Origin: a virus | Strand: one strand, 5' to 3' | Length of the DNA: 64,000 nucleotides | IMG/VR virus record: IMGVR_UViG_3300045988_130225 | Span: 35,703-99,702 of that record | In this document: positions 24,235 to 53,246 of the stretch, in pieces | How the letters are laid out: every line of letters begins with the position of its first letter | How positions within the stretch are numbered: the first letter of the stretch is position 1 | Notes under the pieces: generated by a model | Told to the model about the DNA's origin: nothing | Seen by the model: the letters and a program-made list of their open reading frames with translations, nothing else | Database searches by the model: none | Translations under genes and position numbers: made by a program

Positions 24235-25705
24235 GAAAACTTATAAAAAGTTATAAACTTTTATGTTTCATTCCTACTTCAACGAGTATGCTTTCATAAT
24301 TATTTCTAATATACTACTCACAAGTTCTTGCACTCTCCATAGGCGTAAATTCCGAACTAACGTATTCGTACATATTTATATCAACCTGAAATGCTATGAT
24401 ACAGATTGATTTAAAACATTTTCTCCATATCTTTTAAGATTTAAAGATGCTTGATAATCTCTGTCAATCATATTACCGCAATCACATTTATAAACACGGT
24501 CTGATAATTTTAAATCTTTTTTAATTTTGCCACAACAACTGCATAATTTAGAACTAGGAAAAAACCTATCAGCAACTATTACAGTAATATTATTCCATTT
24601 ACTTTTATATTTAATTTGCCGTCTAAACTCATAAAATCCTTGCTGTTGTATAGCTTTGGATAAATGTTTATTTTTCATCATACCTTTTACATTCAAATCT
24701 TCAATACAAATAAAACTTGGTTCTCGCTTTATAATTTCAGAAGTTATTTGATGTAAATAATTCTTGCGAATATTTGTTAGTTTATGATTTACTTTTAAAA
24801 GTTTCTTTTCGCTTTTTACAATGTTACTTGTTTTACAATAACTATCTCCTTTCTTGTTTTTTAAATATTCCCTAGAAACAGAACGCTGTAACCTACGTTT
24901 TTTCTTCTCTAACTGTTTTATCTTTTGTGATTTATTTATATTTTGATATTTATAATTATTAGAACAAATAGCTAAATCTTTAATTCCTAAATCAATACCA
25001 ATTCCTTCTTTATTAGGAATATTTACACTATCTGGATATTCTACACCAACTGTAATCCACCAATTTAATCCGTCAAATTTAATTCTAGGATTATAATATT
25101 TACAATCTGTCGGTATACGATTACGTTCAGCAAGTCGTATCCAGTTTAATTTCTGCTTATTTTTCTTTTTAGATTTTGTAAATCCTTCAACTTTTACATG
25201 AGTTTCAGAAAATTGAATTTTTACACTATCTTGGTAAAAGGAGGGTGTAGATTTTTTTCTGTTTTTAAATTTAGGAAAGTTTGTCAAGCCTTTAAAAAAT
25301 TTCTTATAAGCATCACAAGCATCTTTAATAGCTTGTTTTGTGACATTGTTAGAAATATCATTTAACCAGACATATTTCTGTGTATGTTTCATTTTTGTAA
25401 ATTCTTTTCGCAAATCCGTATCAGATAGAAATTTACCACCATTTTTATAATTTTCTTGTTCTCTTGCTAATGCCCAGTTATAAGCAAATCGAGCAGTGTA
25501 AGCATACTGAAGCAATTTTGTCTTTTGTTTATTGTTTGGAATTAACATTACTCGAATCGTTTTTAACACATTGTTCGCCACCTTCATCTATAAGTTCTTT
25601 TACAAATTTCTTTGCTTTGTCTTATAAAACTTATAAAAATCAACATTCAATTATAACTTTTTATAAGTTTATAATCATTGTTATTCACCTCTTTCAACCA
25701 GTGTT
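24235..25705 (-). mobile_element. TnpB-only IS200/IS605-superfamily element (element 1)
   Basis: tnpB flanked by a perfect 20 bp inverted repeat (24237-24256 versus the reverse complement of 25651-25670) and by 13 nt direct repeats ACTCAC(C/T)GTTACT (24222-24234, 25706-25718). Confidence 0.6.
24394..25587 (-). CDS. tnpB: TnpB RNA-guided nuclease
   Basis: 397 aa; RuvC motifs GIDLGIKDLA / ICIEDLNVKGM / DRDYQASLNL and a CxxC..CxC zinc ribbon. Confidence 0.9.
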   Translation of the reverse strand: MKVANNVLKTIRVMLIPNNKQKTKLLQYAYTARFAYNWALAREQENYKNGGKFLSDTDLRKEFTKMKHTQKYVWLNDISNNVTKQAIKDACDAYKKFFKGLTNFPKFKNRKKSTPSFYQDSVKIQFSETHVKVEGFTKSKKKNKQKLNWIRLAERNRIPTDCKYYNPRIKFDGLNWWITVGVEYPDSVNIPNKEGIGIDLGIKDLAICSNNYKYQNINKSQKIKQLEKKKRRLQRSVSREYLKNKKGDSYCKTSNIVKSEKKLLKVNHKLTNIRKNYLHQITSEIIKREPSFICIEDLNVKGMMKNKHLSKAIQQQGFYEFRRQIKYKSKWNNITVIVADRFFPSSKLCSCCGKIKKDLKLSDRVYKCDCGNMIDRDYQASLNLKRYGENVLNQSVS

Positions 25706-25728: not shown

Positions 25729-27342
25729 CTATTGATTTCGTGACCGTTCAGCAGAATCAGAAATGGCTTCTTCACTTTGAGGTCTACCAACTTGTCCACT
25801 ACCCCCACTCATGGTATGAATAGACAAAAGTTGTGATAAATTGTCTAAGAAATCACTATTATGTGCTTCTTCCAACATTCTCTCAAAATCCATAGGTTTA
25901 TATCCAAAAGCAGACGCATAAGCACTTGAATTAAGTACCATACCCACATCTGCTAATTTCATAATAGCATCTTGCTTCTTTTTACGCCAAAATGGTTGTG
26001 TACATCCATCAAACGTAAACTTAAACTTAAATTGTTTAGTTTTCTGATTAGCATAGAACTCTAAGAAATTGTTAAATTGAGTATATAATTTAGCCACAAT
26101 CTCATAATCAGCAGTAATAGCCGCTTGAAGTTCTTCGTTTGACATTCTATCCGTAGCGTAAATTAAACGGCTTGCAGAACTACCATATCCCACTGTATCT
26201 TTAGCGGCAGTAGTAGCCATATCTGTGTTTTTATCCTCAAACTGTTTAAATTCAACTTCTTCAAGAGGTAAAGCAATAGAACGAACAATTTTATCTTGTG
26301 TCATAGAGTTTTTCAATCCACTAGCGACAAGTTTCATTAATCGTCCTAATGTACTTGGTTTGACTGCAAACCTATCAGCAACCTCACCAGATTTTGCAGA
26401 ATCTTGCATTTTCATCTCACCGTAAAGTATACCAAAAGCACTGGCAATATCTTTATTTTTTTGTAACTTTGCAATCTCTGTGTTATTGAAAACATTCTTT
26501 AAATACGGAGCCATAAAAGGAACACTTGCAAAATTACTTGTGTCAAACTTGAAAGCCCAGAAACCATCATTAGGACTTGTCTGGTGATAAAGAGTAAAAG
26601 TACCATCACGATTACTTAAGCCGTTTGACGGAATATAATCTTTAAAATCTTTACCGTCCCATACTTCTCTAAGGTATTTTTTAAACACAGGAGCATAGCA
26701 ATCTATATCTACACCTTGCATACCAATAAAGTACATCATGTCGAAGTCGAATAATAAGCCACTTTCAAAATAACCAGTTAAGATACATCTATCTTGTGGC
26801 AATGTTTGTAGAGCATATTTAGGATTGTTTCTATCCATGTTTGTTCTAAAACTTGTATAGTGTACTTCATGTCTTAAAAGCTGTTTTACAACTTTTTTAA
26901 ATTCACCTTTGTAATCAAAATTATCAAGGAATTTATAAATTCTTGCTTTATCAGCTTTATAATTATCAGACTTATAATCTTCTTTCTTAGCGTTTTTACA
27001 AGTAATTTGCAAATCAAAAGAAAGGAGATTTGTGTAGTATTCAATAGTTCTGTTATAAATCATATCGAATACTTCCATAAACTCACTATAAGCCTGTAAG
27101 TTTGTAGCACCAGTTTTATACTCGCTTAAAGCCTTTATAATATCGTCATATTTTGGAATCTTAGCATTGTTGTTAAGATTAACCAAATTCTGATTACTTA
27201 ACCATGGACTATATACTCCAAAACTATCCAATCCATATAAACTCTGAGCAAAACTTACTACATCATAAACCTGTTGTTCTGATAACATAACAGGTTCTTC
27301 TACTTTAGGAGTTAATCTTTGACTATTTTTCGTAGTTCTCAT
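25729..27342 (-). CDS. portal protein
   Basis: 537 aa ORF immediately downstream of terL; size and position are typical. Confidence 0.6.
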   Translation of the reverse strand: MRTTKNSQRLTPKVEEPVMLSEQQVYDVVSFAQSLYGLDSFGVYSPWLSNQNLVNLNNNAKIPKYDDIIKALSEYKTGATNLQAYSEFMEVFDMIYNRTIEYYTNLLSFDLQITCKNAKKEDYKSDNYKADKARIYKFLDNFDYKGEFKKVVKQLLRHEVHYTSFRTNMDRNNPKYALQTLPQDRCILTGYFESGLLFDFDMMYFIGMQGVDIDCYAPVFKKYLREVWDGKDFKDYIPSNGLSNRDGTFTLYHQTSPNDGFWAFKFDTSNFASVPFMAPYLKNVFNNTEIAKLQKNKDIASAFGILYGEMKMQDSAKSGEVADRFAVKPSTLGRLMKLVASGLKNSMTQDKIVRSIALPLEEVEFKQFEDKNTDMATTAAKDTVGYGSSASRLIYATDRMSNEELQAAITADYEIVAKLYTQFNNFLEFYANQKTKQFKFKFTFDGCTQPFWRKKKQDAIMKLADVGMVLNSSAYASAFGYKPMDFERMLEEAHNSDFLDNLSQLLSIHTMSGGSGQVGRPQSEEAISDSAERSRNQ

Positions 27343-27412: not shown

Positions 27413-29293
27413 TTAGAACACAAGTTGGTCTAACTCATCTAAATTGGTATCTCTTTGTTCATCTACAGCATACTTATCACCTATTAAGGTTGCAATATGG
27501 TTTCCGTAACTCAAAGCTACAATTTTATCCTTTGTCGCACTATTTCTGTTAGGTTCTGATAATTTCAAAATACCGTTATTCCATGTTTGAGTTAAACTAA
27601 TAGCTTCTGACATCATTAATGCAGTTTGAACATATGGCAACTTAATATTAACTTTTTCCTCAGAACTCATAGTAAGATAATTTACATCTTCTTCAAGTTC
27701 TGTTTCAATCGTTAATTCATCTACCAAAAATTCAATCATTTCATTATCTAGGGCTTTCTTTAAATCAAGCCACATTAAACTATTTCGTTCACTTGTACCA
27801 ACAATAGGTATGATACATGGTATAGCTTCTGCATCAACCGTTTTGCCTTTAAGTTCTTGAATTTTAGCGTCTGGAACTATCTGTAAAGCAGATTCATAAC
27901 AAACTGTAAATCCATGTGGATTCCAATTACTTCGTGATGGGTGTTCAAAAGGTTTAGATAACTCTGTATAATAAAGAGTACCACCGCTTCTTTCGTCCAT
28001 TACGATATAATCTGCTTGGTAATCCCAAAAGAACTCTCTAATCTTTTGTTGAAATCCCTCACTATCACTAGCAGGGTGCGTTCCAATATATTCTACTTTT
28101 CGTCTTGTCTTACCATCTTTCATAATGACAGACATACAACCAATAACACTATTATCGTTATCGTTTGTATTGCTGTTTACAAAAGCATAATCAATGAAAA
28201 GTAAACGTTTTTCAAATTCACCTTTAGGTCTGTTACCTAAATCAGTTGACATAAATATATCCATAGGCGTAGGTGGTTTATAGGCTTTTTTTATCACTTG
28301 ATTCTTTCTGAAATCTTCAAGTAAGAAGAAAGCACCCTCTGTTTCACCATACATTTCATTCAAATCTTCTGTTACAAAGTCAATATCTGAATCAAATTCT
28401 TTATCATGCCAGTAATCAGCCCATGTTTTAAGGTTAAATAAAATTGCAAGAAAAATATTAGAAGCAAAGAAATTATATGTATGGTCTTTTCGTATCATAC
28501 TTTGTTGAACAACAAGTTTAAATTCTTGCCAGAAACTTTCACTTCTAAATCTTGCAGATGTAATACTTATAGTTTTACATTGCTCAACCCAACGTGGCAA
28601 TGTTTTTCCATTACTATCTTTATATTCGTCCAACAACGAAAATTTAGATTGTCTTGGGTGAGCCATTTTAGAGAATACAGAATCTATTAAACTTTTCTTC
28701 AAAAGTCTACGTTCTTCATATATAAGCATAGTTGCCCTAGAACCTCTACTGCTGTTCAGACAAGGTAAAACCGTTATCATACTGCCATTTATTTTGCTCA
28801 AATCTACTTCTACACAATCATTATTATACCTAAAAACTATATCGCCATTCTCATAATAATATTGTAAAACTGGTGAAAGTTTCTTGCAAAGTTCATCTTC
28901 TATTTTCTTTTTTACTAGCTTTGTAGCCTGTGGAATAGTAGAAGATGTAATAACAACTTCTGCAAACGGGTATAAACATGAGTGTATGACAGCGAGAAGT
29001 CCTGCAATCATTGACTTAGAAGCACCTCTCGAACAAATCGCATACCAATATTGGCTAATTCCTGCTAAATAAACCATAACATGCTGAAACGGATATAATT
29101 TAATCTTTAATCTTCTTTCAGCATATATATTCCAATTACGTCTATAAAATGTTGTCCATTCCTTAATATTTTTCTTTCTTTGTTCCCACGGTAATCTTCT
29201 GTCAGTCTTTTTCTTTTCTTCTTGTTTTTTCTTTCTTTTTTCCACAAGACTAATAATATCTATATCTTTGTTTTCCTCTAACATAGACATCAC
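27413..29293 (-). CDS. terL: terminase large subunit
   Basis: 626 aa; Walker A-like CSRGASKS near the N-terminus, C-terminal nuclease-like acidic motifs. Confidence 0.8.
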   Translation of the reverse strand: MMSMLEENKDIDIISLVEKRKKKQEEKKKTDRRLPWEQRKKNIKEWTTFYRRNWNIYAERRLKIKLYPFQHVMVYLAGISQYWYAICSRGASKSMIAGLLAVIHSCLYPFAEVVITSSTIPQATKLVKKKIEDELCKKLSPVLQYYYENGDIVFRYNNDCVEVDLSKINGSMITVLPCLNSSRGSRATMLIYEERRLLKKSLIDSVFSKMAHPRQSKFSLLDEYKDSNGKTLPRWVEQCKTISITSARFRSESFWQEFKLVVQQSMIRKDHTYNFFASNIFLAILFNLKTWADYWHDKEFDSDIDFVTEDLNEMYGETEGAFFLLEDFRKNQVIKKAYKPPTPMDIFMSTDLGNRPKGEFEKRLLFIDYAFVNSNTNDNDNSVIGCMSVIMKDGKTRRKVEYIGTHPASDSEGFQQKIREFFWDYQADYIVMDERSGGTLYYTELSKPFEHPSRSNWNPHGFTVCYESALQIVPDAKIQELKGKTVDAEAIPCIIPIVGTSERNSLMWLDLKKALDNEMIEFLVDELTIETELEEDVNYLTMSSEEKVNIKLPYVQTALMMSEAISLTQTWNNGILKLSEPNRNSATKDKIVALSYGNHIATLIGDKYAVDEQRDTNLDELDQLVF

Positions 29294-29442: not shown

Positions 29443-30555
29443 TTAAACATTTAAAATTCTTAAACCCTCATTCAAAATATTAATAGAAGCATTATCATCT
29501 CTATTCAATTTTGAACCGCAGTTAGAACAAATCCAGTATCTAATCTCAACAGGCTTTTTACCACCATTAACACCACAACAATGACAAATTTGTGAAGAAG
29601 GAAAATATCTATTAATTACAGATAATATTTTTCCATACCAAATAGATTTATAAGTCAACATTCTACGAAATTCAGACCAAGAAACATCATTCACATGTTT
29701 ATTACGAACACTGGAATCTGTTTCCCTCATAGACTGTACATCTAAATCTTCAATACAAATAATATCATATTGTTTAACAATATTAGTAGTCAATTTCTGT
29801 AAAAAGTCTTTACGTTGATTAGATATATGTTTTTGTAAATTTGCGACTTTAATTCTTGCTTTATTCCAATTAGAACCACCGATTGCTTTTCTCGATAATT
29901 CTCTTTGTAACTTAGCAAGTTTCTTTTCTGACTTTTCATAAAATCTAGGATTTTTAATCTTAATACCGTCAGATAAGATTGCAAAATCTACAATCCCTAA
30001 ATCTATTCCAACATTTTTATTTGTTTTTGGATATTGTGGAAATTCTATATCAGTACAGCATAATGAACAATAGTAATGTCCGTTTGGTTCTTGTGATATA
30101 GTAGCGTTAAGTATTCTTCCTTGCGGAATTTGCTTATCACGAACTTTTACAAAACCTAATTTTGGAAGCCTGATATGCTTACTTTCAAATCTTATATTAT
30201 TAGTAGTACAACTTGTAGTATAAGATTGATGTCTATTTTTCTTAGATTTAAAATTAGGAAAACCAGTTTGCTTTTTAAAAAGTTTTTGATATGCATTATC
30301 TAAATTTTTCAAAGTTTTCTGTAAAGCATCTTTATCTGGTTCTTTAAGCCATTCATTTTCTTTCTTTAACTGAGTAAGCATTTTACTTGTGTCGTAATAG
30401 TTTAAAGTTTTCTTATTTTCTTTATACTCAGTTATTCTTTTGTCTAAGAAATAATTATAAACATATCTACAGCAACCAAAAGTTTTCTGTATTAATTCTT
30501 GCTGTTTCTTATTCGGATAAATTCTATACTTAAAAGCCTTTTCCAACAATATCAC
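29443..30555 (-). CDS. tnpB: TnpB RNA-guided nuclease
   Basis: 370 aa; VGIDLGIVDFA / IICIEDLDVQSM / NRDDNASINIL and zinc ribbon CHCCG..CSNCG. Confidence 0.9.
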   Translation of the reverse strand: MILLEKAFKYRIYPNKKQQELIQKTFGCCRYVYNYFLDKRITEYKENKKTLNYYDTSKMLTQLKKENEWLKEPDKDALQKTLKNLDNAYQKLFKKQTGFPNFKSKKNRHQSYTTSCTTNNIRFESKHIRLPKLGFVKVRDKQIPQGRILNATISQEPNGHYYCSLCCTDIEFPQYPKTNKNVGIDLGIVDFAILSDGIKIKNPRFYEKSEKKLAKLQRELSRKAIGGSNWNKARIKVANLQKHISNQRKDFLQKLTTNIVKQYDIICIEDLDVQSMRETDSSVRNKHVNDVSWSEFRRMLTYKSIWYGKILSVINRYFPSSQICHCCGVNGGKKPVEIRYWICSNCGSKLNRDDNASINILNEGLRILNV

Positions 30556-33934: not shown

Positions 33935-36430
33935 TCAACCATTTTCATGTAATTTCTTTAAATTTTCTATTATTAAATCACCGACAACAGCCCAACAAAA
34001 ATATTTATTCTTATTCTGTCCATAACATAAGTCAAGCATAATATTAACAAGTCTATCTTTGTTTGGACAAATTTCTTCTGCTCTTGCTCTAAATTCATGC
34101 TGTATGCTCATAACTCTTGTATTTGCTTCTTCCGTACTTAAATTTTTCTCAATCACAATTTTCTTAAACTGTTTAATACGTTTAATGTATTCTTTTTCAA
34201 GATTTTCAATATCTTCTCTTGTTTTAGGTGAACTTCTTTGAATAGGAGATTTAAGAAATTCATAATTAAAACCCTTGGATTTAAGTTCTACCACTCTGCC
34301 ATCAAATTCACTTTCCACATATCGGCAAATTCGGTTCATAGTAGAACCAGAAATGTTTACTGGCATTTTTATATCGTACCATTCTAAAAACTTTTGCTGT
34401 TCTTCTGTAAGATTTTTCTTTTCTTTTAATTCATTTACTTTACAACCATAAAGCATAACACATTTAAGGTCACAATTTTTTATATAACTATCATAATCTT
34501 TTTTTAAAGAAGAATAATTATAAATAAAATAATAAGGCTTTTTATCTGTTACGATTGCTTTATCTAAAGGTGTGGTACACAGCTTTGAAACGTACCAATA
34601 CTTAGGCATTTCCTTACAAATAACTCCCTTCAGTTTGTCCAGAGTTGACTGTTGATATAACTGTCCACACAAAATACGTTTTGATAATTCTTTATATTCA
34701 TTTGTATTTTCATTAAATAAAGCTAATTTATCTATTTGTGCCGATACTCTATTAGTGATTGTTCCAACTTCTGAGCCTAAGCCCATACGGTTACTTTTTC
34801 TAATATCGTTTCTTTTAACAATTCTTTTCTCTCCTTTACGTTGTACACAATCAATAGCATTTGTATATTTATAAGCACTTAAAAGTACGTTATTATTAGT
34901 AGAATATATAGAATCACTATCAAAATCGCTCCCGTTCAATGCCATACATATAGTGTCCCAATCATTTAGCACCATCATTGTATTAGAATATTTATACCAT
35001 TCTTGGCATTTTTTATCGTTATTTACTTTCATTTTCCTAATATTATTATGTGAAGTCATAGGAGAACGAAAACAAACTACCTCATTCACACCTTTATCTA
35101 TCCAATATTGTGAATATATTTCGTTAGCTTTAAGTAAACCAGTAACCTCTAATCCATATATACTCTGCATTAAAGCATAAGAATCACCCATAACTATCTG
35201 ATAATTCCCTTCAACTTTCAGTTTACCTATCTTAGCTTGATTAATCTTTTTCTTAATCATTTTATTGATTCTGTCAATCACATAAGGGTCATTCATCATT
35301 CTCTCATCTAAATATAAGGCTTGTGCATAATCTTTGGTTTTAGTTTTTTCACCAACACCCAAAAATTCTTTTGTTTTCTGGTAATCACCACCAAACGCCA
35401 TTTTCAGCCAATCAACAGTAGGTTTACATAATTCTACAATCTGTTCATCTGTCAATTCATAACTTTGCAAATACTGATAATTTGTTTCTCTTGTATCTTC
35501 CAACTTTTTAGGTGTTACTTTTGTAGCAGAAAACCTATAACCATTTTCATAATAACATTTGTGGTATTCTTCCCAACTAGAATAATTATCCCATAACTTA
35601 AGACTGGATTCAGTAATAATCATATCCACATCTCGAATATCTCTTTCAGTACCCCAAATATCTTTTACTTTATATCCCTTACCAACTTCCTCAGCAAATT
35701 TTATAATCTCAAAGACATTCAACATACCTTTCATATAAGCATTTCTTAAACAAATACCACTTGGCAAATAATCAAGACCTAATTTATCAGCAACTCTTTG
35801 CATATATTCTGGTGTACAAAGATTCATGCCGTCACTGCCGTTGTTTTCTAACTCTACACCAAATTTTTCCTCAACGATAGGTTCATCTGTTTCACTATCA
35901 TCAATCCTAACCACATCACCCTTAAATTTAGTGATACAATCTCGTACAACCAATACAGAGCGTGGTTCTGGTATCTCAACGGACGCTGAATAGGTCAGAG
36001 CAATATAAGCCTCTAATTTAGCCGGTATAGCCTTGTAATCTTTCTTCCTACCACAATCAGTCCTTTTAATTAACTCTGGTAAAATATCTTCTCTCACAAA
36101 CAATAAAGTATTATTTTTAAGACCACCAGTAGTTCCAACAACCCACAAAAACCTTTTACCATTTAAAATCACACCAGTTTTAGACGTAACTTTGTCATAG
36201 TCACTCATTGAGGAAATCTCCACAGCAAGCATTAAATCCGTCATATCTTGCTTGTATTGTTTGTTACCTATAATTGTAATTAAATCTATCAGTCGAAATG
36301 CTTGTGAATCAAATAAGTCAATCAATTCATCTAAACGAACCGCCAACTCTTTGGATAAAGTAATTTGCCAGTTGTTTATTCGGAAACGTTCAGATGAAAC
36401 TTTGAAAATCTTTCTACGTTTATTTTGCAT
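33935..36430 (-). CDS. YonO / RdRP-like single-subunit (two-barrel) RNA polymerase candidate
   Basis: 831 aa; VVCFRSPMTSHNNIRKMKV followed by NGSDFDSDS mirrors the R.P...gD and GxDxDGD motifs of cellular RdRPs and SPbeta YonO. Confidence 0.6.
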   Translation of the reverse strand: MQNKRRKIFKVSSERFRINNWQITLSKELAVRLDELIDLFDSQAFRLIDLITIIGNKQYKQDMTDLMLAVEISSMSDYDKVTSKTGVILNGKRFLWVVGTTGGLKNNTLLFVREDILPELIKRTDCGRKKDYKAIPAKLEAYIALTYSASVEIPEPRSVLVVRDCITKFKGDVVRIDDSETDEPIVEEKFGVELENNGSDGMNLCTPEYMQRVADKLGLDYLPSGICLRNAYMKGMLNVFEIIKFAEEVGKGYKVKDIWGTERDIRDVDMIITESSLKLWDNYSSWEEYHKCYYENGYRFSATKVTPKKLEDTRETNYQYLQSYELTDEQIVELCKPTVDWLKMAFGGDYQKTKEFLGVGEKTKTKDYAQALYLDERMMNDPYVIDRINKMIKKKINQAKIGKLKVEGNYQIVMGDSYALMQSIYGLEVTGLLKANEIYSQYWIDKGVNEVVCFRSPMTSHNNIRKMKVNNDKKCQEWYKYSNTMMVLNDWDTICMALNGSDFDSDSIYSTNNNVLLSAYKYTNAIDCVQRKGEKRIVKRNDIRKSNRMGLGSEVGTITNRVSAQIDKLALFNENTNEYKELSKRILCGQLYQQSTLDKLKGVICKEMPKYWYVSKLCTTPLDKAIVTDKKPYYFIYNYSSLKKDYDSYIKNCDLKCVMLYGCKVNELKEKKNLTEEQQKFLEWYDIKMPVNISGSTMNRICRYVESEFDGRVVELKSKGFNYEFLKSPIQRSSPKTREDIENLEKEYIKRIKQFKKIVIEKNLSTEEANTRVMSIQHEFRARAEEICPNKDRLVNIMLDLCYGQNKNKYFCWAVVGDLIIENLKKLHENG

Positions 36431-37376: not shown

Positions 37377-37429
37377 TATAATATCCTCCTTTATACTTTT
37401 ATTTATATTAATTATAATATTATATATAA

Positions 37430-37458
37430 TATATATCATTTTTTATTATAAAAGTCAA
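37430..37458 (-). promoter_or_regulatory. sigma70-type promoter of the minus-strand early operon
   Basis: TTGACT (reverse complement of 37453-37458), 17 nt spacer, TATATA (37430-37435). Confidence 0.5.
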
Positions 37459-37505
37459 TAGTATTTATTTAACTTTTATTAATAATATTTTAATGTATAA
37501 TATAC

Positions 37506-37536
<31 letters not shown>

Positions 37537-37567
37537 GTCTATTATAAAGTAAAGAATTAGCAATCTT

Positions 37568-37800
37568 TGATGCCGTAATTAACAACACACGCTATGGCTA
37601 TAATTTGAAAAAAGGCTACCCTCAAGGGTAGACTTTTGAAAATTTGTGCCATGTGTTGTTGATTACGGTATCAAACAAGCGGGGAAGAATGTAGAAATAA
37701 CATGGTGCGAAACCCTTGGGTTGAGCATGCTACCATGTTATTTATATATTCTGGGGTGCAACGCCCAGAGACGGGGTGTGGGTGTCCTCAACCCCACCAT
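37568..37800. other. GC-rich nested-helix element in the divergent control region (strand unknown)
   Basis: 21-22 nt arms 37568-37589 / 37652-37673 (19/21 complementary) enclose a terminator-like hairpin; then a 12 bp helix AAATAACATGGT/ACCATGTTATTT, CTGGG/CCCAG and GGGGT/ACCCC stems. Confidence 0.4.
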
Positions 37801-37860
37801 AATAATATTCATTACTAATTTTATATTTATATTAATATTATATAATATATATTATACCCC

Positions 37861-37889
37861 TTGACATATTCTATATTATATGATATAAT
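37861..37889 (+). promoter_or_regulatory. consensus sigma70 promoter of the plus-strand arm
   Basis: TTGACA, 17 nt spacer, TATAAT. Confidence 0.6.
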
Positions 37890-38073
37890 CGGAGTATGAA
37901 GTTGATTAATAGTAATAGAAAGTATAAGAGTTTTTGAATTTTTGTACTATCAAATGTATCTAATAAGGTGTTCTCTATATCTGATACATTTACTAGTACA
38001 AAAAATTAAAAACTATATAATTTTTATTGAGTTTGCTTACATTTTAAAAAATACCAAAAAAGGAGAAATGATT

Positions 38074-44017: not shown

Positions 44018-44089
44018 AGGGCATTAGCCAAGCGGAAAGGCAAAACACTTTGACTGTTTCATGCGTAGGTCCGAATCCTACATGCCCTG
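44018..44089 (+). tRNA. tRNA-Gln (UUG)
   Basis: Manual fold: 7 bp acceptor AGGGCAT/ATGCCCT, D-arm GCCAAGCGGAAAGGC, anticodon stem AAACA/TGTTT with loop CTTTGAC, T-arm GTAGG-TCCGAAT-CCTAC. Confidence 0.85.
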
Positions 44090-44973: not shown

Positions 44974-45047
44974 GGAACAATATTTCAACTGGTTAGAAAG
45001 TTCGGCTCATAACCGAAAAGTTATAGGTTCGAGTCCTATTTGTTCCA
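44974..45047 (+). tRNA. tRNA-Met (CAU; could be an Ile2-type)
   Basis: Manual fold: acceptor GGAACAA/TTGTTCC, D-arm TTTC..GAAA, anticodon stem TTCGG/CCGAA with loop CTCATAA, T-arm ATAGG-TTCGAGT-CCTAT. Confidence 0.85.
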
Positions 45048-45211: not shown

Positions 45212-46467
45212 TAGAACAGTAAGCCAAAAACCCCCATTAGCTTTAGCTGATGGGAAGAATAGTGGAGAACAATTAACTGAGAGTGAGGTGATTATAGATG
45301 TTGGTAGCATACAAATACAGATTGTATCCGAATAAAGAACAACAAGAATATTTTGCTAAATGTTTTGGGTGTGTACGATTTATCTATAATCGTATGCTTT
45401 CAGATAAGATTGACTATTATAAAGAAACAAAGAAAAAGCTGAATAATACACCTGCTCAGTACAAGAAAAAGTTTGAGTGGCTAAAAGAAGTAGATTCACT
45501 TGCATTAGCAAATGCTCAAATGAATTTGCAGACAGCCTATAACAATTTTTTCAAACGTCCAGAAGTGGGTTTTCCAAAATTCAAAAGCAAGAAGAATAAT
45601 CACTTCTCTTATACTACAAATAATCAGGGAGGAAACATTTATGTGACAGACCGATACATAAAACTCCCTAAGATTGGACTTGTTAGAGTTCGGAAACATA
45701 GAGATTTTGAAGGATTAATTAAGTCTGTTACTATTTCTAAAAGTCCGTCTGGTAAATACTTTGTTTCAGTATTAGTAGACCAAAAAGATAAAGAAAAATT
45801 AATTCCAAACAATAACCAAATTGGAATTGATTTAGGTATTAAAGAATTTTGTATTACTTCTGATGAAGAGATGATTCAAAATCCAAAGTTTCTTAGAAAG
45901 TCTGAAAAGAAATTAAGAAAATTACAAAAGGATTTATCTCGTTGTCAAAAAGAAAGTAAAAATAGAGAAAAATGCAGAATTAAAGTCGCAAGACAACATG
46001 AAAAGATTGCAAATCAACGTAAAGATTTTCTACATAAGTTATCTAGGCGATTTATTGATGAAAACCAAATCATTGCATTAGAAACTTTGAAAATTAAAAA
46101 TATGATGAGTAATCATAAATTAGCAAAATCAATAGCAGATGTATCATGGTCTGAATTTGTAAGACAATTAGAGTATAAGGCTCAGTGGTATGGTAGAGAA
46201 ATCGTAAGGATTGATACTTGGTATCCATCAAGTCAGATATGCTCTAATTGTGGTCACAAAGACAGAAGAAAGCCATTATCAGTAAGAGAATGGATCTGTC
46301 CTAATTGTGGTACACATCATGAAAGGGATATAAATGCAGCTATAAATATTCTTAAAGAAGGTTTGAGAATTAAAACGGCAGGAACTGTCGAGATAGTCTA
46401 AGTAAACTTGTGCGGTTACGCATATTGATTAGAAAATCCAATGAGTTTTAACTCATGGGTAGTTCAG
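45212..46467 (+). mobile_element. TnpB-only IS605-type element (element 3); left boundary uncertain
   Basis: Similar subterminal hairpins at both ends (CCCATTAGC-TTTA-GCTGATGGG at 45232-45253; CCAATGAG-TTTTAA-CTCATGGG before 46459); right end GGGTAGTTCAG parallels element 2. Confidence 0.55.
45298..46401 (+). CDS. tnpB: TnpB RNA-guided nuclease
   Basis: 367 aa; [11 protein letters not shown] / [12 protein letters not shown] / [11 protein letters not shown] and zinc ribbon CSNCG..CPNCG. Confidence 0.9.
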
Positions 46468-46861: not shown

Positions 46862-48455
46862 ATGAAAAACAGTAAAAGGATTGTATCGAAGATACAGAAG
46901 AATGTTCAAAAAGAAATAGTGTTAGTATCAAAAAATAGAGAGAGGAAATGGCAACTCGTTAATTTTTGTGAATTTGACAAATATGCAACAAAATCATACT
47001 GTGCCATTCATGGTGTTGATGAATCATTGAATCTTGGTGATATTACAAAGGTTGATGAAACAAAGCTTAAACCATTTAATATGATTTGTGGAGGTAGCCC
47101 GTGTCAAGATTTTTCTATAGCAGGTAAGCAAAAGGGTTCTGTTTGGACTTGCAAAGAATGTGGACATGAATATAATCCATTGACGGTACATTGGCTAAAA
47201 AGAGATAAGTGTCCATGCTGTGGAAGTAACAATATTGAAAAAAACTCGTTCATCTCTTTTAGTAGAGTATTTAAGAGTAATAAGAGCGAACAAACCCAAT
47301 TTTGGTTTGTATGAAAATGTTAAAAATATTGTTGGAAAACAATTTAAAGAAACTACTTTTAAATTATTTACTGATGAATTGAAAGAATATGATTATAATG
47401 TGTATTGGAAAGTTTTAAATGCAAAAAATTACGGTATTCCGCAGAATAGAGAACGTGTTTATTTAATTTTTATCAAGAAAGACTTGGATAATGGCAAGTT
47501 TAAGTTTCCAGAGCCATTTGATAATGGTGTTCGATTGAAAGATATGCTTGAAGATAAAGTAGATGAAAAGTATTATATTTCAAAAGATAAAATTGAAAAA
47601 TTTTTAAAGAATTTTAATTATGATTTTAGTAAAAATCAGTTAGGCAGTATTGAAAATAATAATTCTCAAACCAATAGAGTATATAATATAGATAAAGAAT
47701 CACCAACTTTAAACACTTGTTCTGGTGGTAATCATCAACCAAAAGTTTTATTAGGAGTTGATAAAACTTTTAATAACCCAAAAATTATAGATGAAGCTAA
47801 TTGTTTATGTGCAAGATATGATTGTGGTTTTACTAAAAGAGTTTCAGAAGGCACAGCAGTTTTAGAAAGTATTCCAATTTTAGTTTCAAAGAAAGGCGAA
47901 AAGTTTGATAAAAAGATTAATGAAGCAAATACGTTATTAGCCCGTGATTATAAAGGGTTTGGAAATCAAACTATGAACGCAGTTATTCAAATCCCGCAAG
48001 CAACTAAAAAAGGCTATATTGAATGTGAGCAAAATGGTGTTGCAGATTTATCATATCCAACTTCTACTACAAGAAGAGGGCGTGTACAAGAAAACGGAAA
48101 TATTTCACCAACTCTTACAGCATCAGAAACAAATATTTGTAAGATAGAATCATTGATTAGAATTAGAAAATTAACACCAAAAGAATGTTTTAGACTTATG
48201 GGTTTTTCTGATAATGATTTTGAAAAAGCTGAGAAAACGGTAAGTAATTCACAATTATATAAACAAGCAGGTAACTCTATTGTTGTAGATGTGCTTTATT
48301 ATATATTAGTTGAATTATATAAAGCAATGCCATATCTGTTCGATGATTTGAAACTAAGTAGTTTTTTCTCTGGAATTGGAGCGTTTGAGATAGCATTGGA
48401 TAGATTATATAAAGGAATAAATTCTGGAAATTTTATAAGTCTACAAGTAGATTAA
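46862..48455 (+). pseudogene. C5 cytosine DNA methyltransferase, frame broken at an A7 tract; motif order rearranged
   Basis: Frame 1 (46862..47314) has GGSPCQDFS; frame 2 (47220..48455) has TRSSLLVEYLRVI, ENVKN, QNRERV, TRD-like SPTL modules and AGNSIVV; frames join if A7 (47238-47244) is read as A6. Confidence 0.75.
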
Positions 48456-48992: not shown

Positions 48993-49416
48993 TAAATTAA
49001 GAGAAGCAAAAAAAGGTAAACTTACCAAAGAAGAAAACGCAATTAAACAGGTTTCAGCATGTATAAAGGCATGGGAAAATAATGAACCTGCGACACTTAG
49101 CACTGAAACAATGAAAACAATCCTTAAAACTTTAAAAGAGATAAAAGATTTTCGTGACGTTGGCAACGTAAAAACTATAAAAGAATTAAAAAAACTCAGC
49201 CTTAAACGTCAACCTAAAAATCTTAATAAAAAATATTGCGACTACAAAGTTGACGATGAAGAAATCCATTCTTTCTATGGCATCTGCCCCAACTGCGAGC
49301 AACCATTAAATTTCTACTGGCATCAGAAATATTGCGGCAACTGTGGACAAGCCCTTATCTGGCGAAACTTAAAGTCAGTAATAAGCAAGAAAGACCTTGA
49401 CAAAATCATAAAGTGA
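48961..49416 (+). CDS. hypothetical protein with C-terminal zinc ribbon (start uncertain)
   Basis: 151 aa; CPNCE..CGNCG. Confidence 0.45.
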   Translation: MSESELFNMIDKLREAKKGKLTKEENAIKQVSACIKAWENNEPATLSTETMKTILKTLKEIKDFRDVGNVKTIKELKKLSLKRQPKNLNKKYCDYKVDDEEIHSFYGICPNCEQPLNFYWHQKYCGNCGQALIWRNLKSVISKKDLDKIIK

Positions 49417-49432
49417 CACGTTCACATTTTTA

Positions 49433-49475
49433 AACCCCTTAGTAACACAAAGTACAAGGGGTTCTTTTTTATTTT
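49433..49475 (+). terminator. intrinsic terminator
   Basis: AACCCCTT...AAGGGGTT stem followed by CTTTTTTATTTT. Confidence 0.7.
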
Positions 49476-50399
49476 CAACCAAGTTATCACATTCAGAACA
49501 AAATTCCCCTATATCTACTTTCTACGGACTGTTACCACCCTAAATCAGAATAAATCCCCCTAACTCAGAGCACGAGATTTCGCCCTATATTGCAAAACAC
49601 TACATGAAGCCCAAGGGAGTAATTATTTGCAATGTCCTATAAATTGGACACCTAAAACACTAATGAAAATCATTTAAGACTTGAAGCATTGCAATTCGCC
49701 CACTCGAAAACGCCTACGCAAAAACCATTACTTTTCGACTATAGGGGGTCAAGGCACTTTTCGCCAATAGTTCTTTTTAGAACCATTTTTCCGTTATTCA
49801 TAAATTTTAATAACGAACAGTGAAATGACAAAACACCTGTCTTTACAACTGACAAGACAACTGACAAGACATTTCTTAATTTTCCACTATGGTTATGATA
49901 TACCACTCTCCCCTAAATTTAACTACCTGTGGTCACTCTTATATACCGTTACAACTCATTTAAACGCCCCTAGAAACGATTTTAATAGATAAGACGATTA
50001 AGTTATCATACGCAGACTAAAACGCCCACATTTGCCTTGTACTGTTTCATATAAAAAGTGACACCTTATCATGCTCCTAAAACCTCTACAGAAATAATAG
50101 TCAAAATTTAAACCAGTATACCGGTATACGGCGAATGACCCCCTTGTTCCCCAGTATACAATTACCCCCCTCTATCAGATAATATATTATCTATTGTAAA
50201 GAGTAGATGACTAAGAGATAGAACTACAAGAATTATAAGAATAGATAAGAGATAAGAGGATTGAGAACTGGATAATATGTTGGTTATTACATACTCGTAA
50301 ATGTTGCAAAATCCCTATTCTGTGTTATCACCTACACCTATAAAACCACTAGGCATAAAGAGCAAAATGATACACACATTTTCGTCATATATATCTTAA

Positions 50400-50820
50400 A
50401 TACTCTTAGACGATTTACTGTGTGCTATTGTTGTGAGAAATGATATGAAAAGTATAGGTGGTTAAGGTGGTGTGAAAATGGTCTGGGATAGGTATGGGGA
50501 ATTTGGTTATCGTGCGTGTGCGTTATATATAATTATATATAGTGGGAGTTAATAAGTAGGAAACGGTGAAGTGATGAGAGATGAAAAACTAAGGATTGAT
50601 ATGAACATAAGGATTTAGGAATATAGAGGGCAGAAGGATATATAAGGATATATGATATAAGGTGAGAGTGGGCGTGAGTGGGTGCGGAGATAATGATGAT
50701 AGTTGGGATAGAGCAATAGCAATGGGGGATAGGGGGTAACAGGAGCAATAGATAGAGAGATAATTGAAATACTATGAATATTGGGTGAATATTGAGTTGT
50801 GGGAGTGTGCGGTGTATCAG
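50400..50820. repeat. C-depleted (G/A/T) block
   Basis: Manual count, e.g. 50461-50520 has 25 G versus 3 C; recurring GGGATA, GGTATGGGG, GTGCGG, TATAAGG motifs. Confidence 0.8.
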
Positions 50821-50997
50821 CTATTCCGAGTATGCGAAAATCGTATATACGAATTGTCTGAAAATACCCCGGTTATACGTGACTAACAGAATGAGTGTTC
50901 GACTAGCCCAGAGGAGGGGGCGATATACTCTGCCTGCATAGGTTCGGAACGTCAAAAAACATGGCTATAATAAATCATTATAGACACGTTTTGCATG

Positions 50998-51015
50998 TTA
51001 TCAATATATTGATAA
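50998..51015. repeat. perfect 18 bp palindrome in the core between the two skewed blocks
   Basis: TTATCAATATATTGATAA equals its reverse complement. Confidence 0.95.
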
Positions 51016-51149
51016 TACTATACGTTCAAAACTAATGGTTTTTATTGATACTTGAACACTTTTAACGTGATTGATATATTGGAAGTATTATATTATGTTA
51101 AAAAAATGACGTAATAAGAAGGTACTATATATGTGATACCGCATACCAT

Positions 51150-51650
51150 TAGCTAAGTTATCTTCCTTTATGTTTCTTCTTTCCCCTCTTCTCTTCATAC
51201 GCTCTCAATAGTCCGCATGAAACATTGTATATACTTATTATATCTATATTATTCCATCATCCTCTTTCTCCATCTTCCCATATCCTACTATACCATCTTC
51301 CATTCTTTCACCTATCAACCCACTTTCCATCCGTTCATATATCCCACTTATACCAGATCCATTTCAATTCCATTTCCATTTCCACCTGTCATCATTCCCC
51401 ACACTTCCACATCTTACAATTAATCCCATGTCTTATCATATCTCATATCACATCTTCTGTTATCTCATACCACCGCACAACATACCCATACCATCTTACA
51501 TAGTAACAATAACCACATACATAGTATTCAATACTACTTGTAATCTTACTCATATCCCATATCATGTTTTACAATACTATCTCATATCCCTATTAATCCA
51601 CTATGTTAATATGTTACCCATAAACCCATTATCCATATAGGTTAATATAT
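51150..51650. repeat. G-depleted (C/A/T) block
   Basis: Manual count, e.g. 51241-51300 has 0 G versus about 21 C; recurring CCATCTT, CCCATA, TATCCC motifs. Confidence 0.8.
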
Positions 51651-51722
51651 AAATCATAAACCCTATAACATACTATGTTATTGAATTATAACATAATTAT
51701 ATGAGTTGTTGTTATTGATATC

Positions 51723-51808
51723 ATTTTAGGCAATACTTTTATCGCAACGGCTCAATTTTAGTCAATACTTAAAATTTGTACGAAAACTATTGGCATTTTA
51801 GCAATAAT
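51723..51808 (+). repeat. three iteron-like direct repeats ATTTTAG(N)CAATA
   Basis: 51723-51737 ATTTTAGGCAATACT, 51755-51769 ATTTTAGTCAATACT, 51795-51808 ATTTTAGCAATAAT. Confidence 0.7.
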
Positions 51809-52643
51809 GATACATACTAAAACGTTTAATATATATATTATATATGGCACGAAAATGTATGTGTTATTGTTTGAAAAATTGCTACAATTTTCATTATGTT
51901 AGCACAACTCCAATTTTTTGGTTTACATAAGGTGTGAATATTCAGACGCAATTTGAATTTTAGAATAATTTAGCTGTACTTATTAATAAGTGGCGTTTTT
52001 AATAAGTGTATCTAATAATAAATGGCAAGCGATCCAATGCCGGATTTATGTAAATGCCGTTTAAAGCCCTTAGAAGCCGTTTTAAAGCGTTTTAGGGCTT
52101 TCAAAGCATATTTTATCATTAAATGTTTTTCCAATCGAAACTATGTTATGTGGTATTGAAAACTACGTTATTATCTGACAATTTGGCACTCATTAGTGGT
52201 AAGTGCTAATAAGTAAACATATGTGAATTATTGCCATATATGAATAGTAAATAAATGTTTATTAATGGGCTTCTAACATAAAAGCAAAAACACCTATATA
52301 AGCAATGGGGCTTGTATGTATGCTTACTTATATATATGTATATATGCATGGTGTTTTATATGGGACTTGCATATGCTTTTATATAGTAGTCTGCTTTTTT
52401 TGTAAATCCCTTATATATAGGAAGTAATACAATCGAATAGATGTTTTTATGAAAAATGTATAAAAAAATATATGTTTTTTGGTAGTTTTTACCATTGAGT
52501 ATATATATACTTTTTGCTATACTTGCATTATCAAATGAATCAAATCATTTCCATATCGGAAATATTAAGAATATACGTTCTGTATATTCCAAAAAAAATA
52601 AAATTAAACATTAAATCATACATATAAAAGGAGAAGAAAAACA

Positions 52644-52937
52644 ATGAAAAAAATATTAAAAGCAAGTACAAAGAGTGGCGCGCGTTGGATCGTATCCGCA
52701 AAAAAAGAAGAAGGCTATAGACTTTCCGATATTTATGAAAGCTATAGCATAGGCAAAGAAAACGCCTATAACGATTGCTTCAACAAATATGTTTCTGCTG
52801 AAACTTCAAAAAATTTCCGTATTTTTTCTCATAATACTTTTGGTTTTTCTGTAGCTTGGGAGGAAACCATAGAAAATGAAGAATATTTACATATTGAAAC
52901 ACCACAAAACACATATATTGTGGCTTTAAATCAATAA
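52644..52937 (+). CDS. hypothetical protein
   Basis: 97 aa; AAAAGGAGAAG RBS. Confidence 0.6.
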   Translation: MKKILKASTKSGARWIVSAKKEEGYRLSDIYESYSIGKENAYNDCFNKYVSAETSKNFRIFSHNTFGFSVAWEETIENEEYLHIETPQNTYIVALNQ

Positions 52938-52979
52938 ATAGTTTAATTGTCTGAAAAATAAAACAGGAGGATTTATATT

Positions 52980-53246
52980 ATGAGATTGTCAAAAGAAGAA
53001 AGATTAAATTATCAAGAGAAAGAACCAATTTCCGTTTATGGTATATCAAATTTTGGCGGTATAGCCATTATTGATATAATTCATGATGTGGACGAATATA
53101 TTGTGTGGTATGATTCCCAGATTGAATCTTCTGAAAAGCGTAAAATTCATGTTTCAAAGATTTATTATTCTGAAAATGACTGTTATTTTAAACCATACGG
53201 AAGCATGTATATCAAGTTGTCGGAATGTTCACGCATTCTGGCATAA
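52980..53246 (+). CDS. hypothetical protein
   Basis: 88 aa; ACAGGAGGA RBS. Confidence 0.6.
   Translation: MRLSKEERLNYQEKEPISVYGISNFGGIAIIDIIHDVDEYIVWYDSQIESSEKRKIHVSKIYYSENDCYFKPYGSMYIKLSECSRILA

Follow-up and report, generated by a model that had tools for sequence, protein, structure and literature searches.

Mirrored one-nucleotide-depleted arms around a predicted genome-end core in an SPbeta-like phage

What keeps two neighboring blocks of phage DNA almost free of C in one case and of G in the other, and what lies between them? The question was raised by positions 50400-51650 of a 64,000-nucleotide stretch of the virus record IMGVR_UViG_3300045988_130225 (positions 35,703 to 99,702 of that record), which is referred to as the window. 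An original prediction, made without database searches, had described the two blocks as a mirror pair flanking a core of ~330 nt and had attributed them to selection. The blocks are denoted here as the G arm and the C arm. The present analysis bears out the composition of the arms and adds a point missing from the earlier note, namely that the core between them appears to correspond to the segment in which SPbeta-like phages have their genome ends or packaging cut. Several explanations of the arms, differing in probability, are weighed below.

Strand composition of the two arms

The block at 50400-50820 contains 141 A, 119 T, 139 G and 22 C on the plus strand, corresponding to a GC skew of about +0.73, and the block at 51150-51650 contains 141 A, 189 T, 22 G and 149 C with a skew of about -0.74 that reaches -0.81 in the best 400-nt window. 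The near absence of C from the first block and of G from the second was thereby confirmed. Earlier spot counts were exact for 50461-50520 (25 G, 3 C) and 51241-51300 (0 G, 21 C), whereas the figure of some 8 G given for ~480 nt of the second block was too low, as 20 G are present at 51170-51650. The sliding skew profile runs at +0.7 to +0.8 over the first block, falls to ~0 at 50820-51150 and lies between -0.7 and -0.95 over the second block, in agreement with the proposed switch of the G-rich strand across the core. The two blocks have the most extreme 400-nt skews of the 64-kb window; the 1237 intervals of this size elsewhere span -0.51 to +0.56. Binomial probabilities calculated against the window G/(G+C) of 0.471 were about 2e-25 for the G arm and 1e-21 for the C arm. 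When the local 3.2 kb was shuffled 500 times, the skew attained a maximum of +0.25 and a minimum of -0.39. The comparison with shuffled local sequence, which had been offered as a means of refutation, therefore placed both blocks far beyond chance.

T accounts for 28% of bases in the C-poor arm and A likewise for 28% in the G-poor arm. The depletion is therefore specific to one base and does not affect purines or pyrimidines as a class. The G+C content is 38% in the G arm and 34% in the C arm compared to 31% for the whole window.

Short motifs that had been noted in inverted orientation in the two arms were located, each displaced by one base from where it had been placed: GTGCGGTG at 50807 with CACCGCAC at 51471, and TGGGGAAT at 50495 with ATTCCCCA at 51394. 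Nevertheless, such sharing does not exceed chance. The inverted 8-mers common to both arms number 20, against 22.4 +/- 6.3 expected from composition, and shared inverted 6- to 8-mers as a whole were at chance level only. When one arm was aligned globally to the reverse-complemented other arm, the score was not significant (z ~1.5), which agrees with the earlier view that the arms do not form a simple hairpin and on which grounds a degenerate inverted repeat was rejected also.

The causes suggested previously for the depletion fared less well than its description. Arrays of asymmetric protein-binding sites were one proposal, but neither k-mer enrichment nor the best consensus with mismatches at w = 8, 10 or 12 yielded anything in the arms above a first-order Markov null, and no periodicity of WW or GG dinucleotides was apparent at 10-11 bp in the window's arms. 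G-quadruplex formation was assessed as a motif scan: canonical four-run motifs of the form G3+ N1-7 (or N1-12) number 0 in either arm of the window, where two-tetrad candidates only were found and no canonical three-tetrad motif. By eye, the arms of the related phages PMBT24 and CB457P2 possess more and longer G runs than those of the window. There was no indication of convergent transcription or R-loops, and the counts of promoter-like sites in sigma-70 scans of four cores, those of the window and of relatives, were at chance frequency. The consensus -35 hexamer TTGACA is impossible on either arm strand because it needs both G and C, and the C-rich strand has almost no start codons.

Recurrence in relatives and coincidence with genome ends

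The window derives from a large siphophage with a structural block on the minus strand from 0.4 to 37.4 kb. A large terminase subunit (TerL) of the YonF type is encoded at 27413-29293 (minus strand), adjoining a portal gene at 25729-27342. In tblastn comparisons this protein shares 63% identity with the annotated TerL of PMBT24, and 25-30% identity with SPbeta yonF (25%) and the terminases of Thomasclavelia and Clostridioides phages. A homolog of the single-chain RNA polymerase YonO (831 aa) is encoded at 33935-36430 (minus strand) and matches SPbeta YonO with 24% identity over 566 aa (BLASTP, E = 3e-24); tblastn with YonO recovers Enterocloster phages, and YonO of the Psychrobacillus phage Perkons is ~50% identical to that of SPbeta. 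The presence of both a YonF-type TerL and a YonO homolog therefore identifies the window phage as SPbeta-like.

About a dozen genomes were compared for arms and ends. The layout of G arm, core and C arm is found in seven related IMG/VR contigs (L004-L007, L009, L010 and L015) and in every Enterocloster-phage relative that was recovered, including CB457P2 and PMBT24 in which a G-rich block, a core of ~200-300 nt and a C-rich block occupy the equivalent place. The yonP-yonR intergenic region of the Spbetavirus members Goe11, Goe12 and phi3T contains a mirror pair with skews up to +0.78 and -1.00, and the pair is present in weaker form in SPbeta. The layout also is evident in Perkons and in BUCT082, the record of which ends in the G-rich arm. 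The dyad polarity of the arms about the core is identical in all lineages, and the trait spans three host genera at saturated sequence divergence. Conservation of the architecture in related phages, one of the checks proposed originally, thus extends from Enterocloster phages to those of Bacillus and Psychrobacillus; searches of a plasmid collection with the window returned zero matches. Certain candidates were set aside. The LIBA2945 record, which begins at a gene, carries no information about ends; the relevant region of C. botulinum D-1873 is interrupted by an insertion sequence (IS) element and equally uninformative; and three pattern matches without arms (L011, L012 and L016) look like chance matches of a 17-mer.

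Close relatives that are ~85% identical overall retain 93-98% identity across the left flank and G arm (95-98% in the G arm alone), whereas identity is only 76-80%, with many indels, across the C arm and the right core half. The C arm of every close relative keeps 22 G. Substitutions in this arm are dominated by exchanges between C and T, those between A and G being under-represented, and the length of the arm varies from 200 to 600 nt across relatives. Between distant clades the arms are unalignable. Judged by these comparisons, the arms are conserved in composition and not in sequence, and the skew is under selection because it persists in relatives whose arms can no longer be aligned. The selection presumed in the original prediction is supported to this extent.

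The same comparisons bear on the possibility that the arms are non-functional, that is, either decayed coding sequence or the outcome of neutral strand-biased mutation. Long open frames on the C-rich strands are what decayed genes might leave, and all three frames of the C arm are open. However, they are open only because the stop codons TAG and TGA need G, and the six-frame comparison of arms between clades, which addressed the earlier suggestion of coding remnants, revealed no significant translated similarity (best E 0.004 in a tiny database). Furthermore, the content of G or C in the arms is ~twofold above the window average, which simple deamination-type decay does not explain, and composition is conserved without sequence across three host genera. 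A non-functional origin is scarcely credible and ranks last among the explanations considered.

The core is predicted to occupy 50820-51145, with an uncertainty of ~15 nt at the right boundary, which corresponds to about 326-338 bp. It is situated in a gap free of open reading frames (ORFs), and the equivalent blocks in relatives are 251, 264, 304 and 378 bp. The left boundary is marked by a framework, GCTWW-N40/41-TACCCC, of which each phage has a single copy in the 361 kb of loci collected, invariably where the G arm meets the core. This framework is unique in the window, with 0.08 matches expected by chance, and takes the form GCTAT-N40-TACCCC at 50820-50870 on the plus strand. It encompasses the palindrome TCGTATATACGA at 50841-50852 and ATTGTCTGAAAA at 50853-50864. 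The left third of the core is GC-rich; its right half, with a GC fraction of 0.22-0.27, is AT-rich and differs between relatives.

The boundaries of this block can be compared with ends that have been mapped in relatives. Direct terminal repeats of 264 bp were defined with PhageTerm in Perkons (PMC13245101): the framework starts at base 1 of the record, which is the first base of the repeat, and a 500-nt G-rich block (132 G, 38 C) abuts the right repeat copy. PhageTerm analysis of a TruSeq library of PMBT24 produced one significant peak that was called pac-type, and the site was set as base 1 of the record (PMC11035940). Base 1 is where the core meets one of the arms; the record continues with the core and a C-rich arm and closes with a G-rich arm. 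The pac end is placed at the core/C-arm junction, 304 bp from the GCTAT boundary. SPbeta-like phages have an opening point between yonP and yonR, which is followed by a 'precise' over-covered block of ~250 bp (bioRxiv 10.1101/2021.11.22.469490). The BUCT082 record starts at the core/C-arm junction 251 bp from the GCTAT boundary, in agreement with the size of that block. The repeat of phiCD211 is 378 bp (PMC5557969).

As the mapped ends of relatives and the unique framework coincide with the core boundaries, the core is read as a terminal repeat or a cut-bounded block. The locus is very probably a genome-end or packaging-cut module of an SPbeta-like phage, and its ~330-nt core most likely represents a direct terminal repeat of the short type or, failing that, the block after a pac cut. 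If PMBT24 and BUCT082 are a guide, the C arm would abut the packaging cut. The TerL protein encoded at 27413-29293 would be the enzyme expected to cut at the core. The terminase would act on replicated DNA at both core boundaries to generate a mature genome in the order core, C arm, early genes, late genes, G arm and core. Two features of a classical pac site of the P1, P22 or SPP1 type are absent: repeated small-terminase motifs were not found, and the site is ~22 kb from TerL instead of within or beside the terminase genes. A third, the single-strand PhageTerm peak with circular permutation, is reported for the relative PMBT24 only. In contrast, the lineage genes, the framework and the repeat length within an ORF-free gap all correspond with an SPbeta-like module for short direct terminal repeats.

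Sequence relationships at the boundary were noted separately. In Spbetavirus, homology tends to stop at or near the mapped cut: many matches to the SPbeta yonP-yonR region (L019 4100-5070) end at query positions 667-734, with the cut at ~683. Identity within the clade of the window likewise falls once the right half of the core is reached. Seen in these alignments, the genome end resembles a boundary of mosaicism or recombination.

Possible roles of the arms

On each side of the core, the strand that runs 5' to 3' into the core consists essentially of A, G and T, and the partner strand of A, C and T. A single arm strand is devoid of intrastrand G:C pairs because one of G and C is missing from it, and a strand lacking C or G therefore is without palindromic sites that contain G/C and without GC-rich hairpins. 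Moreover, both of the strands that end 3' at the predicted genome termini are G-rich and therefore unable to pair with each other. Predicted folding energies conform to this arrangement. As single-stranded DNA (ssDNA), the four arm strands gave values of -0.014 to -0.031 kcal/mol/nt, compared to a background of -0.076 +/- 0.017 that ranged from -0.043 to -0.115. By element, the values were -0.016 for the G arm, -0.020 for the C arm and -0.103 kcal/mol/nt for the core.

A scheme can be proposed in which duplication of the repeat by staggered nicking and strand displacement would render the DNA beside the repeat single-stranded. Alternative routes to ssDNA would be 5' resection of the ends, or lagging-strand synthesis that remains unfinished there. 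The arms would stay unfolded and inert while single-stranded, and the repeat alone would anneal, thereby keeping end-joining, concatemer formation and cutting in register. That the arms are inert non-pairing flanks, and the repeat is the sole pairing-competent sequence in end processing, is a tentative proposal. More doubtful again is a version in which the arms act as a sequence-independent cis-signal by strand composition, with all G on the 3'-ending strand over 200-600 bp beside a short repeat. If so, the signal would allow the phage to control which end DNA anneals, is resected, primed or cut. Considered as a whole, the best explanation is a concatemer-junction or genome-end module in which the core is cut at both boundaries and the arms are non-pairing flanks, and this composite is regarded as reasonably probable although well short of secure.

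A number of observations weigh against the composite. The authors of the PMBT24 study concluded that packaging is of the pac/headful type and not by direct terminal repeats (PMC11035940). The C-rich block of Perkons is ~250 nt from the left repeat copy with AT-rich repeats between. Apart from the framework, the cores of the Bacillus and Enterocloster clades share no significant overall similarity. Skewed arms are absent from phiCD211, which is in the same terminase clade and has a 378-bp direct terminal repeat, and from the Thomasclavelia phage TR-TP1; the arms therefore are a frequent companion of this junction and not obligatory for this terminase type. The physical ends predicted for the window phage, at 50820 and about 51145-51157, derive entirely from homology of architecture. 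The role envisaged for the arms as single strands is argued from composition and folding energies, and a plain spacer would need no enrichment of G or C.

The composition of the arms could be important instead in RNA. Divergent promoters such as PL and PR of lambda have Rho-dependent terminators downstream. By this analogy, promoters in the core would fire outwards across the arms to produce C-rich unstructured RNAs of 400-500 nt, and the arms would be Rho-loading (rut-like) regions at which Rho contains or times transcription initiated in the repeat. Over their 400-500 nt, outward RNAs would be 30-33% C and 4-5% G, in keeping with rut regions, where C greatly exceeds G for at least 80 nt. They would be almost lacking in AUG, GUG and UUG with no Shine-Dalgarno sequence. 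The predicted RNA folding of the C-rich strands is about -0.04 kcal/mol/nt (-0.043 for the C arm) compared to a background of -0.166 +/- 0.032. The enrichment of C in addition to the depletion of G, and the conservation of composition only, also are as anticipated for Rho loading. In the core, the palindrome CTATAAT-N5-ATTATAG at 50965-50983, read from the sequence as two facing TATAAT boxes, overlaps the best sigma-70-like match of the region (51004->50977, minus strand; 11/12 positions), which is directed into the G arm. The cores of PMBT24 and CB457P2 contain comparable CATAAT...ATTATG palindromes, and a promoter-like site of the same direction is present in each of the PMBT24, CB457P2 and SPbeta cores. 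However, the number of promoter-like sites was at chance in every scan. By eye, a promoter-like sequence for SPbeta yonP is located between the G arm and the gene, outside the arm, which therefore is not the leader of yonP. In PMBT24, a hairpin followed by a T run that resembles an intrinsic terminator (also read by eye) is positioned after the arm and would make Rho unnecessary. Rho loading also leaves unexplained the exact placement of the arms at mapped DNA ends, and overall is an unlikely account of them.

In another reading, the arms would serve to load or be recognized by proteins of the packaging machinery, for example the small terminase or an HU/IHF-like protein, and these platforms would be read by DNA shape or strand composition and not by a sequence motif. 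Small terminases of the SPP1 type bind DNA structure more than sequence. The two-fold symmetry of the locus presents the same context, a G-rich strand running 5' to 3' into the core, at both cuts; the arms adjoin mapped cut sites with dyad-symmetric polarity in all lineages, and the G arm is 95-98% conserved in the clade of the window. Set against this, repeated motifs and phasing at 10-11 bp are absent from the window's arms, the C arm is hypervariable with a length of 200 to 600 nt, and phiCD211 lacks arms despite its related terminase. A platform is also unlikely and is placed next after Rho loading.

The AT-rich right half of the core (GC 0.22-0.27) and the location in a 3.2-kb ORF-free gap would suit a replication origin, with the core as the unwinding element, strand-biased flanks and possible R-loop priming by G-rich transcripts directed inwards, which takes up the convergent transcription of the original prediction. 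Short direct repeats such as ATTTTAG[G/T]CAATACTT are found to the right of the C arm, and an outer inverted repeat that brackets the module could hold inward-facing promoters. However, the switch of skew from positive to negative is the polarity of a terminus and the opposite of that of an origin. Iterons and canonical G-quadruplex motifs are absent from the arms, inward promoters are not above chance, and the locus coincides with the packaged DNA ends of relatives. Among the hallmarks of an origin, namely iterons, an AT-rich unwinding element and a skew that changes from C-rich to G-rich, the AT-rich half of the core alone corresponds, and an origin is improbable.

In a fourth alternative, the arms are arrays of Chi-like sites on G-rich 3'-ending strands that would face the entry of AddAB/RecBCD at the cut and protect new ends from degradation. 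Known Chi sequences are G-rich, and the G-rich strand runs 5' to 3' toward the DNA end as required. Residual C's tend to be in GCG contexts, and GCGTG was observed 7 times compared to 1.3 expected. On the other hand, the B. subtilis Chi sequence AGCGG appears 0 times on both strands of the SPbeta and BUCT082 arms, and no oligomer exceeds the Markov null in the Enterocloster arms. A Chi array is largely refuted for the Bacillus relatives and very improbable in general.

Surroundings of the locus, significance and comparison with known systems

The module is set within the ORF-free gap of 3.2 kb at 49420-52640 that has plus-strand genes on either side. A hairpin and T run at ~49430-49470, read by eye as terminator-like, is at the end of the upstream operon. 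The G arm, delimited at 50420-50819, is ~34% G and 4.5% C on the top strand and ends exactly where the terminal repeat is predicted to start. The C arm extends from 51146 to 51650 and is 30% C and 4.4% G on the same strand. The whole module is bracketed by the outer inverted repeat with copies at 50366-50443 and 51800-51868 (local alignment score 42, compared to 25.9 +/- 3.3 for shuffled sequences), which is kept in the contigs L005 and L006 with scores of 49 and 61, respectively, compared to about 27 +/- 2.5. Between the C arm and the right copy, at 51700-51960, the short direct repeats ATTTTAGGCAATACTT and ATTTTAGTCAATACTT are 32 nt apart with similar units near. Repeats were observed next to the equivalent regions elsewhere: TWAAAAGTG units recur in the outer half of the PMBT24 G arm, and ACTAAAAGTAAYTGAT repeats are beside the terminal repeat of Perkons. 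In the SPbeta G arm (L019 4240-4470), most residual C's are in repeated ATCGTAA / TTACGAT units, and the SPbeta core carries TCGTATTTATAACGA which is similar to TCGTATATACGA of the window. The ATCGTAA / TTACGAT units and TCGTATTTATAACGA may be candidate sites for a regulator or terminase subunit.

At the DNA level, the gap has two short matches only with Enterocloster phages. One is 35 nt at the left edge of the core. The second is a conserved non-coding element of 137 nt at 52046-52182 (plus strand), downstream of the C arm, that was detected by blastn in CB457P2, CB473P2, PMBT24 and CB457P1 and comprises TTCCAATCGAAACTATG and the near-palindrome ATTATCTGACAAT. This element probably functions in early-gene control. 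Rfam models at the gathering threshold identified only a RAGATH-18 RNA and two tRNAs in the whole window and zero in the locus, and matches at E <= 5 in 49000-53000 were at chance level only. Four exact copies of the motif ATTRTCTGAHAA are present at 50853, 52170, 52946 and 58450, each on the plus strand. Two copies are ~20-25 nt upstream of ribosome-binding sites and some are near-palindromic, e.g., AATTGTCTGATAATT; 15 matches with one mismatch were found compared to 7.7 expected. For the plus-strand genes, ATTRTCTGAHAA probably serves as an operator or as a promoter element specific to the phage.

The left flank at 49470-50400 is non-coding and maintains 93-95% identity among relatives with a ratio of transitions to transversions of ~9:1; the adjoining protein of 97 aa is only 60-73% identical. 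A block of 90 nt at ~50165-50255 is identical in 4/4 sequences and holds the perfect palindrome AGATAATATATTATCT. The flank may encode a structured RNA or be densely packed with control sites. The divergent gap at 37400-37960, between the late minus-strand block and plus-strand genes, has tracts of very high A+T content together with a long inverted repeat, gatgccgtaattaacaacacac ... gtgtgttgttgattacggtatc. It occupies the position of the SPbeta pac region yet is without skewed arms.

Three ORFs for IS605/TnpB-like transposases are at 24394-25587 (minus strand), 29443-30555 (minus strand) and 45298-46401 (plus strand), two of the three matching phrog_506 and the third being assigned from sequence only. 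One is between the terminase and upstream genes, and the RAGATH-18 RNA (24271-24343, minus strand; 70.6 bits) is immediately downstream of the first. In Enterocloster relatives of the CB series, the terminase match is in three pieces around an annotated intron-associated endonuclease. The tRNAs, tRNA-Gln (TTG) and tRNA-Met (CAT), are encoded at 44018-44089 and 44974-45047, respectively, on the plus strand. SPbeta-group phages carry multispecific C5 methyltransferases, and a C5-cytosine DNA methyltransferase of the window appears to be split over the overlapping plus-strand ORFs 46862-47314, which has the PCQ motif, and 47220-48455, which has ENV and QNRERV. The split could be a frameshift, a pseudogene or a case of recoding.

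The words 'skew' and 'G-rich' are absent from the publications on PMBT24, the SPbeta relatives and Perkons, and a literature search for skewed flanks at terminal repeats found nothing relevant within a limited searchable library. For an uncultured gut phage, the analysis predicts the coordinates of the terminal repeat and of both genome ends. The mirrored G/C-depleted pair combined with GCTWW-N40/41-TACCCC constitutes a sequence-only diagnostic for SPbeta-like ends that may aid annotation and assembly. The analysis also provides a likely explanation of the over-covered block of ~250 bp in SPbeta-like phages, which corresponds to the 251-bp core between mapped ends; the 264-bp repeat of Perkons is at the homologous site. 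Several hundred bp without one nucleotide per strand, in sequence that drifts across three host genera, is a rare constraint in bacterial or phage DNA, and points to single strands at DNA ends as the target of some process. If a compositional signal is indeed involved, it would amount to a telomere-like solution conserved between phages of Bacillus and those of gut Clostridia. It would also be the first element for packaging or end processing that composition, and not a motif, defines. As the same design is present in the B. subtilis phages SPbeta and phi3T, the function of the arms is amenable to direct genetics.

Among known systems, the G-rich strand that runs 5' to 3' toward each predicted DNA end is reminiscent of eukaryotic telomeres, and the complementary outward-reading strand, in which C exceeds G and which is unstructured, of rut sites. 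The resemblance is of composition only, as the arms possess no tandem unit, no canonical G-quadruplex motif and no telomerase-type maintenance. The cos site of lambda (cosQ-cosN-cosB) and the pac sites of SPP1 and P1 are cis-acting packaging regions in which the cut is flanked on both sides by accessory DNA needed for initiation and termination with partial two-fold symmetry, and the module has flanks on both sides of a predicted cut in common with them. In those phages, however, the flanks are protein-binding motifs (R sites, I1, boxes a and c, hexamers) of tens of bp beside or inside the terminase genes, whereas the flanks in the window are 400-500 bp, motif-free and ~22 kb from TerL.

The concatemer junction of T7 was reportedly described by Dunn and Studier in 1983 as a 160-bp terminal repeat flanked by the SRL and SRR short-repeat arrays. 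On the left-end side, the repeat is followed by a stretch of ~180 nt that is C-rich and G-poor on the inward strand (skew about -0.6 at 161-280) and then by early promoters and genes, as the core is followed by the C arm, control elements and plus-strand genes in the window. In contrast to the window's arms, which have no repeated unit, the T7 flank comprises the repeated heptamer CCTAAAG; SRR is in the same orientation with almost no skew so that there is no mirror pair, and the terminase and RNA polymerase families are unrelated. A junction of the T7 type with SRL/SRR arrays was rejected for want of a repeated unit, T7 having only the C-rich polarity of the left flank in common.

The SPbeta-like opening modules, namely the direct terminal repeat of Perkons, the yonP-yonR region of SPbeta, phi3T and Goe11-14, and the pac region of PMBT24, provide the remaining comparison. 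The ends are mapped in these relatives and predicted in the window phage. In SPbeta the module is directly upstream of yonP-yonO, whereas ~13 kb of plus-strand genes separate it from the YonO and late block in the window. The likenesses encompass the TerL/YonO lineage, the framework at the first base of the repeat, a core in the length class of 251, 264, 304 and ~330 bp, and the presence of G-rich and C-rich arms.

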